Assembly (NCBI GenBank): GCA_051313645.2
Contig: JBNRSN020000010.1
Span: forward strand, 132,680,001 to 132,744,000
From: Centroscyllium fabricii
Taxonomy: Eukaryota
Reading direction: 5' to 3'
DNA: 64,000 nt
Part shown: piece after piece, positions 3,127 to 57,563 of the stretch
How the letters are laid out: every line of letters starts with the position of its first letter
How positions within the stretch are numbered: the stretch's first letter is position 1
The notes under the pieces: generated by a model
Database searches by the model: none
The model's input: the letters and a program-made list of their open reading frames with translations, nothing else
What the model was told of the DNA's origin: nothing
Program-made: the position numbers and the translations under genes

Positions 3127-3760
3127 GCACTAGGCTTCACCCACATTTCAGGCTTCCCCAGGTGCCATGGACTGCACCCACATTGCCTTGCATGCGCCCC
3201 ATCACCATCCTGGCATCTTACTGAATAGAAAGCAATTCCACACCCTCAATGTCCAGCTTGTTTGCAACCACAAGCATTGTATCATGCAGGTCTGTGCCAG
3301 CTTTCCTGGCAGCAGTCATGATTCATTCATCTGGTACCAGTCATCTGTGCCGCCTTTAGTTCAGGCCGTCAGGTTACAGGCTGGCTGCTGGACTATCCCC
3401 TTCGGATTTGGATCATGTCTCCTGTCAAAAACCCAGGAACAGCTGCAGAGCTGACCTATACTGAGAGCCATGCTGCAATCAGAAACATCGCTGAGCATAG
3501 TCGGCATGCTCAAGCAACACTTCCGCTGCCTGAACAGTTCAAAAGGAGTTTTGTAGTACAGCCCTGAGCGGCTATCCAGATTTTATCATCGTTTGCTGCA
3601 TGCTCCATAACTTTGCCATCCTGAGGGACCAGCCCTTACCACCCCCTGGGCAATGTAGATCAACAACTACAGCAGAAGGAGCAGGAACAGTATCGACCAT
3701 CAGTGCCCCTCACTGACAGAGCTCTCAGAGAGCAGCATGTCCAAAAGCATTTCACGTGAA
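3127..3760 (+). pseudogene. Harbinger (HARBI1-like DDE) transposase relic
   Basis: [23 protein letters not shown] and [10 protein letters not shown] motifs, then a CCMLHN-type segment near 3590; frameshifts. Confidence 0.85.
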
Positions 3761-4620: not shown

Positions 4621-4951
4621 CAGGTTTAGTGGTGCTGTATCTTCAGGAAGGTTGCCCTCCCCTTCCTGAAGTGGTAGAGATATCGCCACATCTTCAGCAC
4701 ATAAAATGAAAGAGAGAAAAAGGTTAGCTTTTGGCATCAAAGCAGAGCAGAGGGAAAAGGTGGCTGGCAACAGCAGCTGTAATTTGTCATGCAGAGTGGG
4801 TAGACAAATAGAAGTAAGAAAGGAAAAAGATGATATGATGTGAAGAAGCCCAGTGCGACGTCTCGTCCAGTCTTGCCACTCACCACAGCCATGATACACA
4901 GGGAAGAAAATGTGCATCCAGGCTCCGCCTCCTCCGGTAGCAGTCTCCTGG

Positions 4952-23314: not shown

Positions 23315-25331
23315 CTGTTTCTCTCTCCACCGATGCTGCCTGGCCTGCTGAGTTTTTCCAGCGTTTTCTGTTGTTATTTTGGATTTCCAGCATCCGCAGT
23401 ATTTTGTTATCAATTTAACAAAAGGGCCCTGATTCAAGTGCAGGATCCTTATTATCATATTTAAATGATGCCTGCGCTTGGTGCCGGTGGTCACCTATTG
23501 AGTGCCTGAACCAAAGTGGTGTTGCTCGCTCTTCCAGCTGTATTTTGACTTTGTCACATCCATTTTGGAACACAAACTCGTGCCCGCAATCTCTCTCCCT
23601 ACATTTTTACTGGCTTACAGTATTATTTCAATGACTCGGATCATCCTTAAAACCATTTTCCTAGGACCATTCGACTCTGTACTGTTTTTGCCACGTAGAT
23701 GACCATGGCAATCGAACAATATGGGGATAAGTATTTTCTTTTAAGTATCACCCCTTAAGAAAATCTCTTTGATAGCACCGAGAATTGAAGTGCCATTTAA
23801 ATCCACGCTAAAACCAGAATGCCAACAATCAGACAGACATTCCAGGAACTGGAAAAGCCTTATCAGTTAAAGATAGAAACCATTGAAGAAAACACCATGA
23901 TATTTTGGTTTTCATTTGGAATAACGTATCATTTAAAAATAAAAATCCATTAGGACTTTTAAAAGCTTTACAGAAATGTTGATATTTCAAGCTTATCATC
24001 TCTGTGTACATTATCATGAGATCTTGTAATATGAGAAAGCTTCAAGGAGTTGTCAATGCTCTGCAGAGAACATTACCAGCAACGGGTTTGACAAGAATTG
24101 TATTATTGAAAATGTAGAAGCTGCTTAGTCTGAAATATGAATTTTTGGTTTAAAAACTAGATGCCCTGTTTTTTTTTTTCCTGTCTTAATGAGTTGACTT
24201 GTATAAAAATCAATCATAACTTAAATTGTTACTGCTAATATAGCCCTAGTTTTAGCGTGTAATGGAGTACCCATGTGACAATATTCCAATCATGTTTGTC
24301 AAGTATGAACATCCAGCCTGGGATAAAGATGTCGGTACCTTAGCGCCTCCAGTTAGCACCTGGTAGGAGCGCTAACAGGGCGCTGAGGCAGTAGCGTGCG
24401 GTGAGGCGAATCCAGCACCCCACGCCAAATTCAGCCCCCCCCATAGCGCCGCCGCTACGAGTTAGTGCCGGGGACCTCAGCGTCAGCAGATCGTGATGTC
24501 AGCGAGTGTGCAACGCTCACTGGGTGCCCAATCTGCCAAATTGAATATCGCCCCCTACCTTAGCACCTGATCTCGACAGCGACAGGGAGAGGAGGCATCA
24601 AGCAGGTGGATGCCAGGGATGCTACTTAAAGGGATCATGAGTAATGAGTCGCAGCTCTAAGGTTAGTGCTGTTTTACTGCTTCCTTGTCAGTTTGAGCTA
24701 GTTCAAGAGTTTCATTCAGTCATTCAAAGGTTGTTTAGTCTCCGGAGTGTTGCGACTTCTAAAAGTTAGTTACAATTATTCTCACAAATTATCAAAGTGC
24801 TGCACTCCCTTACATTAATGGGGGCTGTACTGGCAGTCGACCTCGCCCTCCAGGATCTACAGTGGAGGGAGTGCAGGCATTGAGAAAGATTGAAGTGAAT
24901 TAATAAATTTATCAATAATCAGTGAACACATCTTTACAACAACAATATTTACTATTCACCCTTGTGCAATCCCTTAAGGCCCTGTCACACCTTGACGTTT
25001 TAGCCAGCGTATGCAAATTTGGCTAAAACGCTGAACTTTCGACCTTTTTTTCAGTTTTGGGCGTATAATAGCGTATTCATAACATATTGGACGTATGCAT
25101 AACGTATTAGTAACGTACACAGAACGTATCGATAACTTTATACCAACTTATACCAACGAATGCTTAGCGTTTTGCCGACGATCACGTGGCGTAGCCTATT
25201 CAAAGGCTGTTATTGGACGATTCAAATCATACCACTAGACATTTAAGTGCAGCTCCACCCACCCAAACTGATTCCAGTTCTACATCAAAATCTGCTTTGA
25301 CAAGTCTGTTCTTTTGCCAAGTCTCTACAAC

Positions 25332-25871
25332 ATGCCTAGGAAAAGTTCCAAGAATGCTGCCAGGAAGTCTCCTGGCCGTGGCCGTGGGCGCGGACGCATG
25401 GAGGATCCATCACCCACACCCTTCCCATCACGCTCACCCTCTGACGGAGAGGATGCTGGTTCCAATGCCTCTCGGGCATCGTCGGTGGCTGCGTCCGTGG
25501 CCTCCACCTCCTCTCAGCCAACCCTTGCGAAGAAGAGGGCCAAGAAGACACAGTTTTGTCTTTCTGTTGAAGAGGAGCAGCTGATGTGCGATTTCCTTTT
25601 CGAGAACGCCATCCTCTGGGACATTAAAAAGACAGACTACCGGAGGGTGGACAAGAAGGGAAAGCTCTGGGAGGATCAGGCAAAGGACATGGGGAAGACT
25701 GTGGAGCACCTTCAAGGGTGGTTCAAGTCCCTGCGAGACACCCACACCCGTCTCCACAAGAAGAAGAGCGGTGATGGCGCCCCGGAACTGACAGAGAGGG
25801 AGCAGTGGGTGAAGGCAAAGTTCGGCTTCCTCAGGACTGTGGTCCGCCATCGTGCTGAGCCCGTCCACAGT
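25332..25871 (+). CDS. MADF (Myb/SANT-like) DNA-binding protein, exon 1
   Basis: ATG at 25332; EEEQLMCDFLFENAILWDIKKTDYRRVDKKGKLWEDQA...WFKSLRD...W...FGFL; phase-0 donor AGT|GTAAGT. Confidence 0.85.
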
Positions 25872-25983
25872 GTAAGTATAAACACATATTAATATCCATA
25901 ATAATATTTATTTATATTAGTTTTACTGTACTTTGCCTCGTATTTTTGCATTGTATTTTACTAATCAATTGTCATAATTGCAG

Positions 25984-26727
25984 GTAAAGGAAACCATTGC
26001 AGCACACAGCGGGGACCTCGAGGCTGGCGAGGCTGCCTGTGCAGAGATGGTGTTGGACAGCACACCCTCCCCTGTCCCCAGGGGGAAGCGTGGCCAGGAC
26101 GATGACCAGCTGCAGTCACTCCAGAAGAGGGTGCACGAGTCTGGGGAGCTCCTCAAAAATCTCGCACAGCCTCAGCCCATCACAACCACCTCAGCCTTCG
26201 CCAACTACGTGCGTGACAGCCTGGTCAGCATGTCCATGCGCAACTTCCAGAAGGCAAGGTTGCGCATCAACACCATCCTCACTGAGCTGATGGAGGAGGA
26301 CACTGAGGAAGAAACCCCCATTTACGTGCGATCACCTTCAGCACCAGCTACCTACACCCCCACGTCGTCGGCGATGTACCAGCAACATACCCACAGGTGG
26401 AGACACACGGCACCGGCTGCGTCAGTCTGTGGACCGTACATGCACCAGCCACAGTACCAGCAGATGATGCCACAGTACCAGCAGATGATGCCTCCTCCCC
26501 CTCAGCATCTGTTCCAGCATCCTCCTCCTCCTCTGATGACGCAGCAGCCAAGCCTCGCCTCTTCATCTGCTGCTATAGGCTCGGCTGGCCAGGTACTGAG
26601 CCATAGCCAAAGCACCTTCGACACTAGTGATATGTTTAATATCTCTGGATTCAGCATTTCCAGCGGTCCTAATGCTGCAAGCAGCCCGTCTGGGGAGCTG
26701 AAGACACCTCCACCATCAGAGGACTGA
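25984..26727 (+). CDS. MADF protein exon 2 (BESS-like motif, Q/P-rich tail); spliced product 427 aa
   Basis: TTGCAG| acceptor after a 112-bp AT-rich intron, phase 0; FANYVRDSLVSMSMRNFQKARLRINTIL; TGA overlaps AATAAA (26727-26732). Confidence 0.8.
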   Translation, partial: VKETIAAHSGDLEAGEAACAEMVLDSTPSPVPRGKRGQDDDQLQSLQKRVHESGELLKNLAQPQPITTTSAFANYVRDSLVSMSMRNFQKARLRINTILTELMEEDTEEETPIYVRSPSAPATYTPTSSAMYQQHTHRWRHTAPAASVCGPYMHQPQYQQMMPQYQQMMPPPPQHLFQHPPPPLMTQQPSLASSSAAIGSAGQVLSHSQSTFDTSDMFNISGFSISSGPNAASSPSGELKTPPPSED

Positions 26728-26731
26728 ATAA

Positions 26732-27319
26732 AAGGTGACATTGTTTTTGCCATGTTTGTGCAATTTTGTATATACGTTTGATTTTTCAAAGAAGGTGAGA
26801 TTGTTTTTGCCATGTTTGTGCCATTTTGTATATACGTTTGATTTTTCAGAGAATTTGAGATTGTTTTTGCCATGTTTGTGCCATTTTGTATATACGTTTG
26901 ATTTTTCAGAGAAGTTGAGATTGTTTTTGCCATGTTTGTGCCATTTTGTATATACGTTTGATTTTTCAGAGAAGTTGAGATTGTTTTTGCCATGTTTGTG
27001 CCATTTTGTATATACGTTTGATTTTTCAGAGAAGTTGAGATTGTTTTTGCCATGTTTGTGCCATTTTGTATATACGTTTGATTTTTCAGAGAAGTTGAGA
27101 TTGTTTTTGCCATGTTTGTGCCATTTTGTATATACGTTTGATTTTTCAGAGAAGTTGAGATTGTTTTTGCCATGTTTGTGCCATTTTGTATATACGTTTG
27201 ATTTTTCAGAGAAGTTGAGATTGTTTTTGCCATGTTTGTGCCATTTTGTATATACGTTTGATTTTTCAGAGAAGTTGAGATTGTTTTTGCCATGTTTGTG
27301 CCATTTTGTATATACGTTT
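26732..27319. repeat. 60-bp minisatellite, about 9.8 copies
   Basis: Unit GAAGTTGAGATTGTTTTTGCCATGTTTGTGCCATTTTGTATATACGTTTGATTTTTCAGA; most copies identical. Confidence 0.97.
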
Positions 27320-27947
27320 TTAGACCATTGTTATCATGTTTAATTATTTAATAAAAGTTGAGCAAACTCTTGATGTTTGTTGATGTTATTGTTTTAATAT
27401 TTAAATCATAAACAATAATTAACAATAATAAATTCATACACTTTGGAAAAGGTATAATAATATAATGTACATGTATATTGAAAAGTGGATAATTGAAAAA
27501 AAGGCTTTTTAAACAGGAGCTGTAAGTTCTGTGGTCATTCGGAAGACGTCAAATACGTCAATATGCGTTGGAGATACGTTACACATAGGTTCAAAGCACG
27601 TTACTCATAGGTTAGAAATAAGTTCCGGGTACGCTAGACATTATCTCAACGTATTTTGACGTATGACAACTTACAAGTAACGTGTGTCAACGATCGCCTA
27701 ACGTGCCTACAACGTATGGCCAGCGTATGCGGAACGTGTGAATCATACGCTAGATACGTCGAGATTTTTTGTGCATGCTCAAAAAATCTCGACTTACTCG
27801 AAGTACAACGACATATGCAACGTATGGCCAGCGTATGCCAGCGTGCTCTTAACGTATACAAAACGTACCCATAACGTATCCGACGTAAACCAGCGTTTTA
27901 GCCAAATTTGCATACGCTGGCTAAAACGTCAAGGTGTGACAGCCCCT

Positions 27948-28845: not shown

Positions 28846-30218
28846 TAGTATCTGTCCTATTTGGCTGGAGAGGGGTAGAAAACATTTACCTGCTTTTATT
28901 GGCAACCATAATATCTCTGACTTAAATTGGGGGGAGGAGGGAGGAATTTAACTTGACATACTGGGGTTTAAAAAAATGCATATCTTTTCTCATGGGTCGG
29001 AATCTGACTGGCTCTCCAGGGTGTAATCGGCGCAATGTCTATTCCACAGGCTCTGCAGAATTAGAGTTACAACAATGTGTGTGTGGCTGGCTGTGTGCTG
29101 CCAGGGATGAGGTGACCTGCGATGATACAATAGTTCTGTTAAGATGGCAATGACTAAGCTGAAAAAATGACTCAATGTAAAGGTTAAAACTGAGCCTAAA
29201 ATACCCTTTGAAGTGGTTCACTACTAGAGAACATCGCTCATGTTATGGATATGGGAACAAGAAAATGAATGTACAGAAATTGCAATTAAATATAATTTAT
29301 TTAACACTGTACATCATTTGATAGATTTTACCTTAAAACATCACACCTAATATGCACTATAGATATATTTACTTGCATTTGACAGCTTCCTGAAAAAATA
29401 GATGATTATTTAATTCGGCAACAGTCTGAATTCCCCTTCCCCCGACTTTGTTGTGCTATTTGAAGGGTCCTTTAAAGAATGATGTGTTCCATGGAGTTTT
29501 TGATTTCTTAATCTCTGTCAGAGTCTGCCTTAACATGGCAGGTTGACTGATCATTTTGACATTCACGAATATCTAAACTGCATATTAGTTATGAATTTGA
29601 AAAGCTTAATTTTATCAAAATGATGATTCAGTGGTAAATAAATTACATTTAGTTGCAATTTTTGTATGTGTTTAACTTTAATCTTTCTGCATTAAAATGC
29701 AAAATCACCACATACAGTGTCCAAGAAAGATATGGACAATTGTATTGTTTAATTCCATGAATGACATACTGTAGGAAGAAATGTGTCTACAAGTCACCAG
29801 GTCTCCTGAATTAATACAAGCAAGGCCTATTGTTTGGTTTTCTCATTTGTAAGATAAAATTCATTGATGACCGGGGTCGCTGCTGTGAAGTTGCTGTACA
29901 GCTCAGAGAGTGAGGGAACCAAGATCAGCATTTAATTCGTTATCCAAATGCTGCAGCATGTGACTCAATGCTTGACTTATATTTTTATAAAGTAACACTT
30001 ACTCAACATTGCTTCAACATGTCAATTGGCATAAACAAAAGGACTTTTAAACTCCACCCAGCTCACTGGGGAAAATAGAAACCTATCAGAATATTGATCT
30101 TATTAAAGAATGCCTTGCAAAGGAAACAGCATTTTTTTTGAGTTGCCAGATTCTGCTGCATTCCAGAGAAAAGAATTCATCATTAAAGTACAAAATTCAA
30201 ACTTTGTTAAAACATTAA

Positions 30219-31687
30219 GGGGCCCTTCACAATTGTCAACATTTTCACGAGCGTACAAACCGTACGCTGGGGGGGAGGGGGTCCGACTTGTCCGTACGCT
30301 TTTTTAAAAATGTCGATTGAAATTGTCTTCTCTACGCCCCTCTCCTCCCCTACAAACTAAACCTAACGTCGGGGTCTCTCTCTCCCTCTGCCTCCGGCCC
30401 GCCTAAGCCTAACCTTCCTTCCTTGCTGGAGGCCGTAGGCCTCTCCCGAACCGGCCGCTTTCCCTCTGCCTCCGGCCCGCCTAAACCTAACCTTCCTCCC
30501 CCTAGCTAGGAGCGGTCGGTTCCCAACCGACCTCTCCGCTCTCACATAGTAAACTCTACCATTCGGATGGGGTCTGCATTATATAGTCGTCTAGGTTAGG
30601 GGAGGGCTGGGGCGGTGACTCGGGGAACTCTACTATTGGTGTGTCGTCGGTGGGGGCGGGGGCTTTGTGTAGCTTGTTCCAAGTAGGTAGTAGGTTGCCG
30701 AGGCGTATAGTTACTTTTAGAAGAAAGGTGTAGTGTCTGTTGGCCGCCCCGGCGGCCGTCGGGCTCAGCGTGATGGTCTGTTCTGTGAAGTCGCTCCAGA
30801 ACAGCGTGCCTAGGTCGTTGTCAGTGTAGGAGGTGGTCCACGTCTCCCTTATATTATGCCACCCGCACTGGTGTAGTGTTTTCGGCCGGATAGTGAGGGC
30901 GTAGTGCTTCGTTTTACTGCCGGAGAAAGTAAAAGGAGGCACGAGCCGGCTTTGTTTAAACCGTAACAGCTCTATAGGGCTGTACGGGATATCTTTATTG
31001 CTGTTGTCGGTGTAGGTCTCGTTATCGTAGGCGATTACATAATAGCCGTAGTTAGCGTCGCTCTGGTTATACATAGCTGTTTTCTGTTTTCCCGTGCTGC
31101 TCTGTGTTAGGGTTGGGGAGGTGGTAGGCATAGGGATATAGACTATTTTTACCCACTCAAAATCGGCATAGTGTCCCAGTAGGTTAGTGATGTCCTCCGT
31201 CCCTCCGAACACGGCCGACAGCGAAATATGCCACGCGTACTGCGCGCTGGCGGGCGTTGTTTTTCCGTTGTCTGCTGTAGTTAGTCGGGCTACCATGTGG
31301 TAAGCTAGTTTGACGGAGAGTGTTCTGGCGTCTCGGGGTACTGTGTACCTTATGTTGCGTTGTCTGGTGTAGCGTTGTCGGTAGTAGTAGGGCTTCTTTC
31401 TCTGGTAGCTTGTCCGTCTTCCGTACGCCCTTCTCCTCCACCACATCTTTGCTGCTAGTGGGGGGGGGGGGCATAGGTTAGCTTTAGTGCCTTTCCCCTC
31501 GCCTTAGGGTTAGGTGGTTGTTTATGCATTTTTGTCATCGTAATGCTGCTCCGGCCGCTTTTAAATTCCATGTTGGAAAAAATCAACATTTTTGGTGTAC
31601 ACTTCCAGGGGGGGGGGGGGGGGGGGGGTAGCAAAAAAGAGTACTCTTTGTACACTTGTGAAAATGTTGACAATTGTGAAGGGCCCC
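30219..31687. mobile_element. TIR DNA transposon (PIF/Harbinger signature) carrying a viral capsid-like gene
   Basis: Perfect 30-bp TIR GGGGCCCTTCACAATTGTCAACATTTTCAC (30219-30248 and 31658-31687), extending to 47 bp with 4 mismatches; TAA on both flanks (30216-30218, 31688-31690). Confidence 0.93.
30556..31446 (-). CDS. Circovirus/CRESS-DNA-virus-like capsid protein, 296 aa, intact
   Basis: Arg/Tyr-rich N-terminal arm (MWWRRRAYGRR...RQRYTRQRNIRY); Y-ADFEWVKIVYIP resembling circoviral Y-RIxxVKVEFxP; TIRPK; C-terminal YTFLLKVTIRL strand; A at Kozak -3; no stops. Homology judged by eye. Confidence 0.75.
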   Translation of the reverse strand: MWWRRRAYGRRTSYQRKKPYYYRQRYTRQRNIRYTVPRDARTLSVKLAYHMVARLTTADNGKTTPASAQYAWHISLSAVFGGTEDITNLLGHYADFEWVKIVYIPMPTTSPTLTQSSTGKQKTAMYNQSDANYGYYVIAYDNETYTDNSNKDIPYSPIELLRFKQSRLVPPFTFSGSKTKHYALTIRPKTLHQCGWHNIRETWTTSYTDNDLGTLFWSDFTEQTITLSPTAAGAANRHYTFLLKVTIRLGNLLPTWNKLHKAPAPTDDTPIVEFPESPPQPSPNLDDYIMQTPSEW

Positions 31688-32339
31688 TAATAGCCTTGTA
31701 GCTCCAGAACTCCTTTTTCTGACCTGCACGAATTACATTTGATGCTATAAAACATGGCGGACCAGAAGGCCTGTGGCAGAGTTCTCACTGCTCTCCATTA
31801 CAGATTCCAGTCCCTTTAAAATCTGGCAAGGGGGTTGCCTGCCATATGTGTGACGAGTTTCACCAGTTCTGAGATAAGTTACATGGCACGATATCTCACC
31901 GGGACAAAGGCTAACATGTTTCCCAACAGTGCAGATTAAGGAGCATAATTATTGATGTATTCTAAATGATCAATCCATGAAGTAGTACTGTCTACATGAC
32001 AATGAAGATATTTACTGGGTTTAACAAAATCGTAAGATAACCATATAATTAGAGGTGATAAGGAGGCAACGGAAAGAATCCAGATTGATCTTTAAAGTCA
32101 CCACAAAAAGGATTTGTTTCCTGAAGACAATCAAACTTATTTCAATGATCCAACAATTTGGTGGATTCTTTTTACTGTGTAAGCAGAGTAGCAATCATAT
32201 CATTATTTATCTGATGGAAATTATCCTTTTTCCTCCATAAGCTGTCTAAAGGTTCCGTGTATCATAGGAATGTATTTCCAAAATGAAAGCACCACAACAT
32301 AAATTTGTGACAGATAATTGATATATTAATGCATAAATA

Positions 32340-56324: not shown

Positions 56325-56948
56325 TCACAAAACCTGGAACTTCCACGAGGACGTTTGATCTTTGTAATCCAAGCAGTCGGCGTTGAAGTTGAGTTTCCAG
56401 GAAGCTGTCTGGTCTTTATAATCCAAGCAATCGGTGGAGTTAAAGCCCAATCCGCCGGTTGGGTAGCCCTGGGCAGAGAGGGAGGCCGGAGACTGGTTGA
56501 GGTGGCCGGCGGTGACCGCGTTGGTGCCCATGGGACTGAGCGCCGTCCCTGGGGCGGGGAGCTGGTGGTGCATCGGGGACAGGTACGAGCCGCAGTCCAT
56601 TCCCCCGAAGTAGGACGTGGATCCGGCGTAACCCTGCGTGTAACCCGAGGCCTGGGTGTAAGTCATGGGGTAGGAACGCTGCATGCACGACGAGGAGGTG
56701 GAGAGGCAATCGGGGGCGATCGGAGAGATGGACGCGGGGCTCCATATCGACACCGGGGCGCTGCTGCTCGATATGGCCGTCACCGAGGTGCTGGAGGGCG
56801 GCGTGAATTGGCCGCTCGCCCCGCTCTCCGAGCTGGGCTCACGGGACGGGGAATTCTTCTTCTTGGCCGGTCGAACTTTATGCTGCCCTCCGTTCTGCTG
56901 CTGCTGCTGTTGTTGGCGGCATTTTGCTCGACGATTTTTGAACCAAAC
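56325..56948 (-). CDS. otx2: Orthodenticle homeobox 2, last coding exon
   Basis: [14 protein letters not shown] (K50 homeodomain end), SIWSPAS motif, tandem Otx tail [35 protein letters not shown]; acceptor TTTTTTAAG|. Confidence 0.97.
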
Positions 56949-57563
56949 CTTAAAAAACAAGAAAATTAATTAAACCGTAACAAAAAATACAAACATTCTA
57001 ACTTGAAACCAGCGCGTAATTAATGCGTTTTAAAAGTGCCTGCATACTTTAGAATGGTCGCAACAAAGCCGTGAAATACACGATGAAATATGATTTCATA
57101 TAATAAATAGGCTTGTTTGTGTTGACACAGTAACTGCAGTTGGAATAAGTGCTTGCATTCTGTTTGATAAAGTGTTTGTTCCCAATATTATATAGAACAT
57201 TCTTCATAAGGAAAATCTACAATGAACTGTTTGCTGGATCTTGTACAGTCTCTTATATCAGTTTCTCCTTTCTTACGTAGTCACAGGAGGAAAACATATA
57301 TTTTGTTCTTGTAAAACTTTACACTGAAGTAACATGTTTAATTTTACAGGCTGAAATCCGCCAACACAGTCTTTGTCTTTTAAAATAATCTCAATGAGTT
57401 TACGGCCTTTCGCCATCAATCCCTTTCAGAGTGCAGGGTCCCAGCAGCCGGCACAGCCTCCGACCCTCTGAAATATTCTCTACCTCATCCCATGTTGATC
57501 CCCCCTCCCTCCCTCCTCAGCGAGCGGGATTCGCGCCTTCTCAGGATCTGGGGGCCCCGGTCA

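Follow-up and report, generated by a model that had tools for sequence, protein, structure and literature searches.

A Zator-like transposon family that seems to carry the capsid gene of a Rep-less virus-like agent as a passenger in the genome of Centroscyllium fabricii

Results

The element and its parts

The window analysed here is a stretch of 64,000 nucleotides from the forward strand of Centroscyllium fabricii (assembly GCA_051313645.2, JBNRSN020000010.1:132,680,001-132,744,000), and positions are counted from its first letter. Between two copies of TAA lies an element of 1,469 bp (30219-31687), whose terminal inverted repeats (TIRs) match perfectly for exactly 30 bp and show 90% complementarity when 51 bp are compared, and whose single unbroken open reading frame (ORF), on the minus strand at 30556-31446, encodes 296 amino acids with the N-terminus MWWRRR. 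An initial annotation of the window had given the same length, perfect TIRs, flanking TAA and single ORF, all of which we confirm, and had described the element as CpG-rich, unlike its flanks. Measured as observed/expected, CpG stands at 0.84 inside the element and at 0.26 and 0.33 in the 2-kb flanks, and GC content at 0.53 inside compared with 0.41 and 0.40. The features are as follows.

30216..30218, no strand: left target site duplication (TSD; TAA), read from the sequence and by locus comparison
30219..30248, plus strand: TIR, 30 bp, perfect, matched exactly at 3,703 places in the genome
30219..30315, minus strand: short arm, transposon-derived, 93% identical to bases 4732-4835 of the element L048
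30324..31514, minus strand: captured cargo of lineage A, most of one circle turn, with 78-82% identity to TIR-less copies elsewhere
30380..30500, no strand: two 43-bp direct repeats (93%) in the cargo non-coding region, with related repeats in TIR-less units
30514..30532, no strand: hairpin directly past the stop codon (8-bp stem, 3-nt loop), a candidate cis-element of putative function
30556..31446, minus strand: 296-aa ORF with an Arg-rich N-terminal arm, a probable CRESS-type jelly-roll capsid and a Pro/acidic tail
31515..31687, minus strand: long arm, transposon-derived, 95% identical to bases 1-181 of L048
31658..31687, minus strand: TIR, 30 bp, perfect, by locus comparison
31688..31690, no strand: right TSD (TAA), read from the sequence and by locus comparison

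A young family of insertions

The exact TIR 30-mer occurs 1,865 + 1,838 times in the genome, far beyond chance, the reversed control being found 0 + 0 times. Matching TSDs flank 32 of the 33 loci bounded at both ends (22 TAA, 10 TTA and one mismatch), which bears out the view that this is a multi-copy, non-autonomous, cut-and-paste family. Main-type loci with both bounds number 29, and 4 of them (that in the window and L014-L016) are of the short form, 1.45-1.49 kb; the remainder are mostly of about 1.95-2.0 kb and contain a 3'-part repeat that is absent from the short form, so that the window cargo is missing some 495 bp of the common 1.95-kb form. The TIR-bounded capsid copies, roughly 30-40 in number, form a star-like tree, and the family is young, as the initial annotation had supposed of this insertion. 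A derivative in which the capsid gene is disrupted stands at about 17 copies, about half the spread; its filler was considered as a second viral segment and rejected, since it matches a dispersed host repeat. Five other TIR pairs were sampled and all five hold other cargo, without the capsid; as they have just the arms in common, the idea that the roughly 1,850 TIR pairs are capsid-deletion derivatives was likewise rejected.

That the element is an assembly chimera or a contaminant is a negligible prospect. The empty site proposed as a check on the window locus was not recovered, with 0 matches in the assembly and none among the sequencing-run joints listed, which would agree with an artefact, but the 32 distinct sites each have their own flanks and duplications, and on contigs from run X5, possibly the source sample, the unique flank on either side continues into its TIR, though for just 21-22 bases. 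Among the runs listed no RNA dataset contains the element sequence.

The mobilising transposase

An autonomous partner, for which a search by TIR had been proposed, was found in L048. This element of 4.8 kb has TIRs identical to those of the capsid element and encodes an ISAzo13-like DDE transposase, and mobilisation in trans by the L048-family transposase is thereby supported. A 747-aa frame of L048 matches NF033519 (E=1.5e-5) and PF07592 (E=0.0035), both below the curated cut-offs, and the relatives P0005-P0007 of this transposase match the same Pfam family, PF07592. For the 747-aa frame at least 23 matches cover the full length, with 98-100% identity, and many of them lie in open frames of about 860 codons. 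The transposase has a C2H2 finger at its C-terminus, and its identity to proteins of sea urchins is 61-67%.

The element had been assigned tentatively to PIF/Harbinger, and a MITE-like member of that superfamily would agree with the TWA duplication, the G-rich start of the TIR and the presence of a MADF-coding TIR element 2.3 kb from the window element. We now regard this assignment as extremely improbable. The TAA/TTA duplication is common to Zator and PIF/Harbinger and is therefore not diagnostic; the ends of the neighbouring MADF element are unrelated; and L048, which shares both TIRs and arms with the capsid element, encodes the ISAzo13-related transposase with its C2H2 finger and yielded no Myb/SANT (MADF) gene in the 5 frames scanned of 13 listed, with a profile library that does detect MADF in the neighbouring element. 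No IS5/ISL2-related transposase family was matched in L048 at E<=1 in Pfam and NCBIfam. Zator is ISAzo13-like with 3-bp TSDs and the Harbinger transposase is linked to IS5 (PMC10045372), and Zator-1 of amphioxus has TAA/TTA TSDs and 33-bp TIRs (PMC12905397). Profile matches, TSD and TIR, set beside published descriptions of Zators, thus suggest that the mobiliser is Zator-like.

The cargo protein

In the ESM Atlas the ORF is grouped with CRESS/circovirus capsids, at 0.95 for the whole sequence and 0.94 for residues 38-258 (Circo_capsid clusters), with a recognition score of 2126 that lies below the tool's mark of 2300. The nearest clusters are of Cressdnaviricota, and CRESS clusters rank above those of anelloviruses, the Gyrovirus capsid clusters lying at 0.91-0.93. 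Searches by sequence gave little: no Pfam or NCBIfam family matches the ORF at E<=1, the Circo_capsid profile included; a PDB sequence search found nothing; searches of 5.8 billion and 1.84 billion proteins returned one match, P0002, of the same family (96-97%); and among 1.8 billion representative proteins no relative was found beyond one contig of that family. Alignment by hhalign with the genome's own circovirus capsid gave a probability of 0.2%, and when the ORF was scored pairwise with 59 ORFs taken from 18 CRESS loci, the best value was z=2.0, the capsid-like ORFs not being separated from the others. AlphaFold models were uninformative (pLDDT 31.8 with a 9-row alignment, 31.6 for the core alone), and Foldseek with the first of these gave 0 matches at E<=0.001. 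On one language-model source, the basic arm and the selection described below, the ORF most likely encodes a CRESS-type capsid, as had been proposed, with a candidate jelly-roll fold.

A probable Rep-less circle as the source of the cargo

The initial annotation rightly saw no Rep and missed where the cargo came from. The capsid gene is also present without TIRs, in a unit of 1.31-1.37 kb that occurs as tandem arrays and permuted fragments, which point to a Rep-less circle. One head-to-tail array has a period of 1,358-1,367 bp; concatemers are both head-to-tail and inverted; 424-479 nt separate the capsid stop from the next capsid start at 5 loci of 3 lineages; and the tandem array holds no further long ORF, nor the unit a Rep. 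At least five strain-level lineages can be distinguished, of which lineage C is a mosaic with a B-like gene and an A-like non-coding region. The hairpin after the stop codon has an 11-bp stem and an 8-nt loop in lineages B, C and D, compared with 8 bp and 3 nt in the window copy, and the loop of the conserved hairpin is a T-run. A Helitron-like unit with fixed ends was rejected, as the TIR-less copies break at differing positions. Gypsy elements adjoin 2 of 9 TIR-less copies; of the circovirus loci 1 of 5 has such a neighbour, and of the TIR-bounded loci 2 of 36.

The circle would be a capsid-only, Rep-less agent, whether a satellite, a segment or a minimal Rep-less virus. We hold the chances evenly balanced that it was a satellite or segment of a Rep-dependent CRESS-type virus, with a helper Rep acting in trans, possibly that of an endogenised circovirus. 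In the same genome there are 44 matches to Rep and 71 to the circovirus capsid, the nearest ESM Atlas clusters are those of Cressdnaviricota, and capsid-only circles of <1.2 kb resembling nanovirus segments are described from arthropods (PMC6186406) and circoviruses integrate in tandem in fish (PMC6372831). However, the CRESS nonanucleotide NANTATTAC is absent from the B unit and the full A element, whereas the circovirus copies carry TAGTATTAC within a hairpin; looser nonanucleotide matches occur in lineages B and D. Comparison of the circle with 5 Rep loci gave no common DNA beyond one 29-bp match (E=0.008), and the sole candidate for a second segment, that is the only locus with the non-coding region and no capsid match, was rejected because, with 40 of 75 candidates scored, it proved to be a fragment that lies within a Gypsy element.

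A complete single-gene virus or replicon, anellovirus-like but smaller and copied by host recombination-dependent replication, is a more doubtful account of the circle. It would accommodate the lack of both Rep and canonical origin, the head-to-tail and inverted concatemers, the mosaic strains and the Gyrovirus clusters, and anelloviruses are themselves Rep-less, with a capsid circovirus-like in origin and a replication that may use concatemers (PMC10266747). Against it, the anellovirus ORF2 motif W-x7-H-x3-C-x-C-x5-H is absent, in all 4 lineages compared, from the two alternative frames that overlap the start, the ESM Atlas prefers CRESS clusters, and no free circle was seen in IMG/VR (0 of 4 candidate stretches) or in JGI metagenome contigs (0 of 103). 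A minimal capsid-only replicon has been proposed in scenarios for the origin of anelloviruses, and we know of none. The satellite or segment and the stand-alone virus concern what the cargo was, and both are compatible with the explanation of the element as a Pack-type Zator.

Two captures and the selection that preceded them

In the lineage-A capture, to which the window element belongs, the arms are 93-95% identical to L048 and the interior is circle DNA, the junction of long arm and cargo falling at an 8-nt stretch likewise found in the circle (microhomology). The second, capture C, is a 2,290-bp element between TTA and TTA, with other breakpoints and the ORF ended at codon 232; a 98-100% identical TIR-less copy lies elsewhere, with no TIR within 7.4 kb around it. 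Two circle strains were thus taken up by the transposon independently, with different breakpoints. An element of Pack-type is defined by ends that derive from an autonomous family, an interior of captured coding DNA and dispersal with TSDs, and all three are found here.

Between circle lineages dN/dS is 0.044-0.133, indicating strong purifying selection. Among the TIR copies, with L021 and L038 removed and L015 regrouped, there are 20 synonymous and 39 non-synonymous variants, against a neutral expectation of 19.8 and 39.2, so that omega is 0.98 (rough 95% range 0.6-1.7; the raw NG86 ratio is 0.53 before mutation-class correction). The frame is open at 17 of 28 distinct main-type sites, and these 61% represent no excess over the approximately 84% of copies expected to be open under neutrality with stops alone. 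A gene acting in trans would also give neutral-looking tips, and the test therefore leaves room for rare use.

It had been suggested that the capsid is kept for packaging the transposon and carrying it from host to host, and several observations could be read in this way: the 17 open frames, the two independent captures by one transposon family, the size of the element (1.5-2.3 kb, near a circovirus genome of about 2 kb, PMC6372831), the near-identical sequence in runs labelled as two organisms and in one fish-gut sample, and the likeness of the partner transposase to sea-urchin proteins. The neutral evolution of the copies, the gene cut short in capture C, the spread of the gene-disrupted derivative and the other cargo of the sampled TIR pairs leave the suggestion unsupported, and we consider it very unlikely. 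An excised cut-and-paste element is, moreover, double-stranded and without a Rep to provide a packageable strand.

Discussion

We favour, as the probable explanation, a Pack-type Zator element, descended from a recently active DDE transposon, that amplifies a viral passenger, its interior having been replaced by a copy of the Rep-less circle of about 1.35 kb. A single-stranded DNA agent would have replicated in germline nuclei, leaving fragments and concatemers in the genome, of which the TIR-less tandem and permuted units are directly visible. During excision-gap repair the transposon, whose arms trace to L048, may then have changed templates at short microhomologies and continued on the circle, or on a copy of it already integrated, an event for which two breakpoint sets can be read. 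The partner transposase would thereafter have multiplied the product in trans to its present copy number, dispersed at TAA/TTA. Selection would have acted on the capsid for as long as it belonged to the free circle; after capture it would have been a neutral passenger.

More speculative versions can be drawn. That the circle was a one-gene, Rep-less DNA virus of vertebrates, which entered the germline many times and was repeatedly given an integrated, multiplying form by a Zator family, we think improbable though worth stating; the boldest version, in which the capsid also packages TIR-bounded DNA and carries the transposon between hosts, appears highly unlikely.

The transposon preserves an undescribed virus-like agent, whose putative capsid seems to ride as a passenger. 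The family is a multi-copy record of a DNA transposon taking up virus-like DNA twice, and with autonomous partner, both junction sets and uncaptured source strains in one genome the capture route is directly readable. The agent that it exposes would escape screens for endogenous viruses that rely on Rep or on HMMs, and each identity proposed for it, be it a satellite, a multipartite-virus segment or a minimal stand-alone virus, bears on the origin of Rep-less ssDNA viruses.

Comparison with known systems

In the literature searched, no capsid-only cut-and-paste element is described; several systems resemble parts of it. The circle resembles LfBACM-1, SACM-2 and nanovirus-type segments in being small with one putative capsid ORF (PMC6186406); those are free arthropod circles of <1.2 kb, whereas this unit of 1.31-1.37 kb lies in a vertebrate germline and has no detectable sequence kin. 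With Anelloviridae (PMC10266747) it shares the absence of Rep and the Arg-rich arm, and would share a jelly-roll capsid of circovirus-like origin, but it is smaller, has one gene and has no ORF2 motif. Endogenous circoviral elements (CVe) likewise integrate in tandem in fish, and in carnivores the mobile element LINE-1 has amplified them (PMC6372831), although those are mostly rep-derived, while here there is no rep, the Circo_capsid profile is unmatched and the amplifier is a DNA transposon.

Among TIR elements with viral genes, the geminivirus-like transposon of Tuber melanosporum (42 copies, >95% identical) is similar in being a recently amplified TIR element with an ssDNA-virus gene (PMC3198968), but has an interrupted Rep, transposase remnants and no TSD, whereas the present element has clear TSDs and, without any Rep, a gene that is capsid-like. 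Teratorn, a piggyBac-herpesvirus fusion, also encloses viral genes between DNA-transposon ends in a fish genome (PMC10175614); it is autonomous, 180 kb long and has an intact viral gene set, whereas the present element is non-autonomous, of 1.5-2.3 kb, and its viral gene shows no selection since the fusion.

The closest parallels are in the transposon itself. The family shares with Zator, whose transposons are related to ISAzo13/TP36, an ISAzo13-matching DDE transposase, a 3-bp TAA/TTA TSD and a TIR of about 30 bp. In amphioxus a host gene is reportedly mobilised by Zator-1 arms (PMC12905397), there lying between two elements, in contrast to the virus-like cargo within a single, internally replaced element here. 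Pack-TYPE elements, which have TIRs and are likewise non-autonomous, take up coding DNA and increase its copy number (PMC8903248); those described are of plants and hold fragments of host genes, whereas in this vertebrate a whole foreign gene has been taken up together with its non-coding region.

The element in the window and its surroundings

The initial annotation had described a TIR-bounded unit with flanking TAA and a single ORF, and all of its parts were found again at 30216-31690:

30219-31687, 1,469-bp unit bounded by perfect 30-bp TIRs
30216-30218 and 31688-31690, TAA target-site duplications on both sides of the element
30556-31446, minus strand, 296-aa ORF, the sole ORF of the unit

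The CpG richness that it had claimed is also borne out, the observed/expected ratio being 0.84 within the element versus 0.26 and 0.33 in the flanks. A second TIR element, at 24977-27947 and 2.3 kb from the first, has 61-nt arms at 95% and TTA on both sides. It contains a 60-bp tandem array and a MADF (Myb/SANT-like) ORF apparently interrupted by an intron, with no transposase seen. It has the appearance of a genuine non-autonomous Harbinger element, and its ends are unrelated to those of the capsid element. Nested AT-rich inverted repeats at 29272-29666 (38-nt arms at 89%, 26-nt arms at 85%) are probably an old MITE, and an Otx homeobox gene has its last exon (56325-56969, minus strand) some 25 kb from the capsid element.

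A family of TIR-bounded capsid copies

Repeat types suggest a vertebrate host, probably among the cartilaginous fishes. A DNA search of the 7.2-Gb host assembly with the element gave at least 140 matches (40 of 2,216 candidates scored). We examined 35 loci of lineage A, the strain of the capsid-like gene borne by the window element, comprising the window and L014-L047; L020 and L021 share flanks and were counted as a single site. Both TIRs are visible in the fetched stretch at 33 of the 35, and matching duplications are present at 32 of these (22 TAA and 10 TTA, the remaining locus reading TAA/GAA), which answers the question of whether further copies with their own TAA/TTA duplications exist. 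The usual copy is about 1.95-2.0 kb long, its common form being a 1,348-bp stretch, one full turn of a circular unit, followed by a repeat of its 3' part; in the window copy and three others about 495 bp are gone between the two 3'-part repeats.

Contig depth in sequencing run X5, which may be the source sample, is 245-334 across the gene versus 7.9-11.6 on unique flanks and suggests 30-40 gene copies, depth being in itself no copy number. Nine runs from three studies, labelled as two organisms and fish gut, contain 73-86% of the gene's words. In fish-gut run X9 a contig of 997 nt (record 27) belongs to the element; its differences concentrate in the capsid C-terminal tail (window 30607-30685), and it may be a recombinant or come from a related host species. 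Loose ends are common to runs X2 and X9, with none listed for X5.

A probable Zator-type mobiliser

The exact TIR occurs 3,703 times in the genome, and five TIR pairs were sampled from the first 100 places listed. One of them, L048, is 4,835 bp long with TTA on both sides and a 747-aa frame; the arms of the window element match its two ends at 95% and 93% identity, which supplies the autonomous partner missing from the initial annotation. The frame matches the ISAzo13 models NF033519 (E=1.5e-5) and PF07592 (E=0.0035), both below the curated cut-off; we take TP36 to be the same family as PF07592. A downstream frame encodes a C2H2 finger. Database relatives of the transposase, at 43-68% identity and with named members from sea urchin and sponge, keep its acidic motifs, 43 residues separating the second D from the E in six of seven rows. 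At least 23 full-length genome matches (60 of 137 candidates scored) are 98-100% identical, many in open frames of ~860 codons.

According to PMC10045372, Zator resembles ISAzo13, both having 3-bp TSDs, and Harbinger pairs with IS5/ISL2; PMC12905397 describes Zator-1 with TIRs of 33 bp and a TSD of TAA or TTA. Membership of PIF/Harbinger, as first proposed, is not upheld: two Harbinger features were not found, the partner being ISAzo13-like and showing no Myb/SANT domain in the five of 13 L048 frames scanned. Every Zator feature tested was found. The L048-type family (L048:242-5076 and its genome matches) is probably Zator-type and recently active, and the capsid element works like a Pack-type non-autonomous Zator. 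The transposase shares 61-67% identity with sea-urchin and 53% with sponge proteins, identities that hint at horizontal transfer among marine animals.

The other four sampled pairs (L049-L052) have only the arms in common and carry different cargo, with LINE-like fragments recognised by eye, which makes the uptake of foreign DNA habitual in the TIR family and the capsid version a small minority. This abundant form is ~1.85 kb long and includes other host fragments; TIR pairs number about 1,850 in total.

Identity of the ORF product

The ORF has no match in Pfam, NCBIfam, PDB, IMG/VR or metagenome contigs, and its sole protein-database match (P0002, 96-97% identical) comes from a contig of the same family. 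In ESM Atlas the top-ranked clusters are Circo_capsid ones from Cressdnaviricota (0.95; 211 of 256 features in common), with all ten best family matches in agreement; removing the basic arm lowers the score to 0.94, and next in rank are gyrovirus capsids at 0.91-0.93. This tool is the single source for the call, and its recognition value, 2126, lies under its own 2300 mark. Two AlphaFold predictions gave no confident model, and no significant similarity to known capsids emerged from pairwise or profile alignment. The product is therefore probably, rather than demonstrably, a capsid protein.

A Rep-less unit as the source of the cargo

A protein search of the genome returned 132 matches (132 of 208 candidates), some of them from lineages at 51-94% identity. 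Lineage B forms a TIR-less head-to-tail array with a period of 1,358-1,367 bp and one internal inversion. From capsid stop to next capsid start there are only 424-479 nt at five loci in three lineages, so that the unit, of 1.31-1.37 kb, has no space for a Rep. The ends of TIR-less copies fall at differing positions, as expected of fragments of a circle or concatemer. Lineages B, C and D share a hairpin after the stop codon (11-bp stem, 8-nt loop), and NANTATTAC is absent from the B unit and the full A element. The cargo lacks the Rep and origin looked for in Circoviridae and the ORF2 motif looked for in Anelloviridae (PMC10266747). In the four lineages examined, TTAGG/CCTAA words are repeated in opposite orientation flanking the cargo non-coding region (e.g. 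window 30338-30500) and are candidate protein-binding iterons.

Between lineages dN/dS is 0.065 (A-B), 0.044 (A-C) and 0.133 (B-C), with dS up to 1.6. Four B copies carry 36 synonymous variants where 15 are expected, and 16 non-synonymous ones where 37 are expected (z=6.55). Lineage C is a mosaic whose gene resembles that of B and whose non-coding region resembles that of A; such divergence and mosaicism have the look of a recombining virus population. More divergent capsid fragments (L053:977-1183, L054:760-1221 and, in the host assembly, G000:C800:20468205; protein identity 51%, 72% and 60%) suggest older invasions by related circles. Several TIR-less viral inserts (L009, L011, L059, L060, L063 and L083) lie, by eye, inside or beside Ty3/Gypsy gag-pol.

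A helper for such a Rep-less circle is possibly to be found in a true circovirus present in the same genome, represented by 44 matches to Rep and 71 to the capsid, with Rep and Cap in facing orientation and TAGTATTAC in a hairpin; the five Rep loci examined lend this link no support, none lying within the TIR family of the capsid element or sharing meaningful DNA with the circle. Many circovirus copies (e.g. L059-L063) are in open frames and 96-98% alike. This endogenisation is large and young, its matches far exceeding the 10-20 copies of carnivore circoviral elements given in PMC6372831.

Two captures by the transposon

Lineage C occurs within the same TIRs with longer arms, its circle opened elsewhere than in A. 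This capture (L055/L065) is 2,290 bp long, with TTA on both sides and the ORF cut at codon 232; the 1-232 pattern is found at five loci, of which two were examined, one of them from a single end. A copy that matches C at 98-100% identity, and has no TIR in the surrounding 7.4 kb, includes the stretch missing from the captured form. The arms match L048 at 93-99% identity, whereas dS between A and C is 1.6, so the two strains had separated before they were captured. Transposon and circle have 8 nt in common where the long arm of A meets the cargo, which fits template switching in gap repair; capture would then have occurred by a switch at a short shared stretch, the template being a free circle or an integrated copy.

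Is the capsid of use to the transposon?

The initial annotation saw the capsid as possibly spreading the transposon, a role that the copies do not bear out. The 17 open-frame TIR copies (L021 and L038 excluded) differ by 59 distinct single-base variants. Of these, 20 are synonymous and 39 non-synonymous; once transitions and CpG are taken into account, 19.8 and 39.2 are expected, giving an omega of 0.98 (raw NG86, 0.53). Their tree, with bootstrap not settled, is star-like, the tips having a median length of 0.004. The frame is open at 17 of 28 distinct main-type sites, no excess over what neutral decay allows, and about 17 copies exist of a derivative in which host repeats have taken the place of most of the gene. 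The gene evolves neutrally among TIR copies and nothing supports service to the transposon; rare use of the capsid is conceivable, since tips can look neutral even for a trans-acting gene.

Comparison with known systems

The main value of the finding lies in the capsid unit without Rep and in two capture events whose course can be read. The accessible literature, with few subscription journals and excluding Repbase, yielded no capsid-only cut-and-paste element and no account of this unit, and EVE tables (PMC11521997 and similar surveys) could list these loci. The nearest precedents are a Rep-bearing TIR element of truffle (PMC3198968), the carnivore circoviral rep amplified by LINE (PMC6372831), Teratorn (PMC10175614), the Pack-TYPE elements of plants (PMC8903248) and the capsid-only circles of arthropods (PMC6186406).
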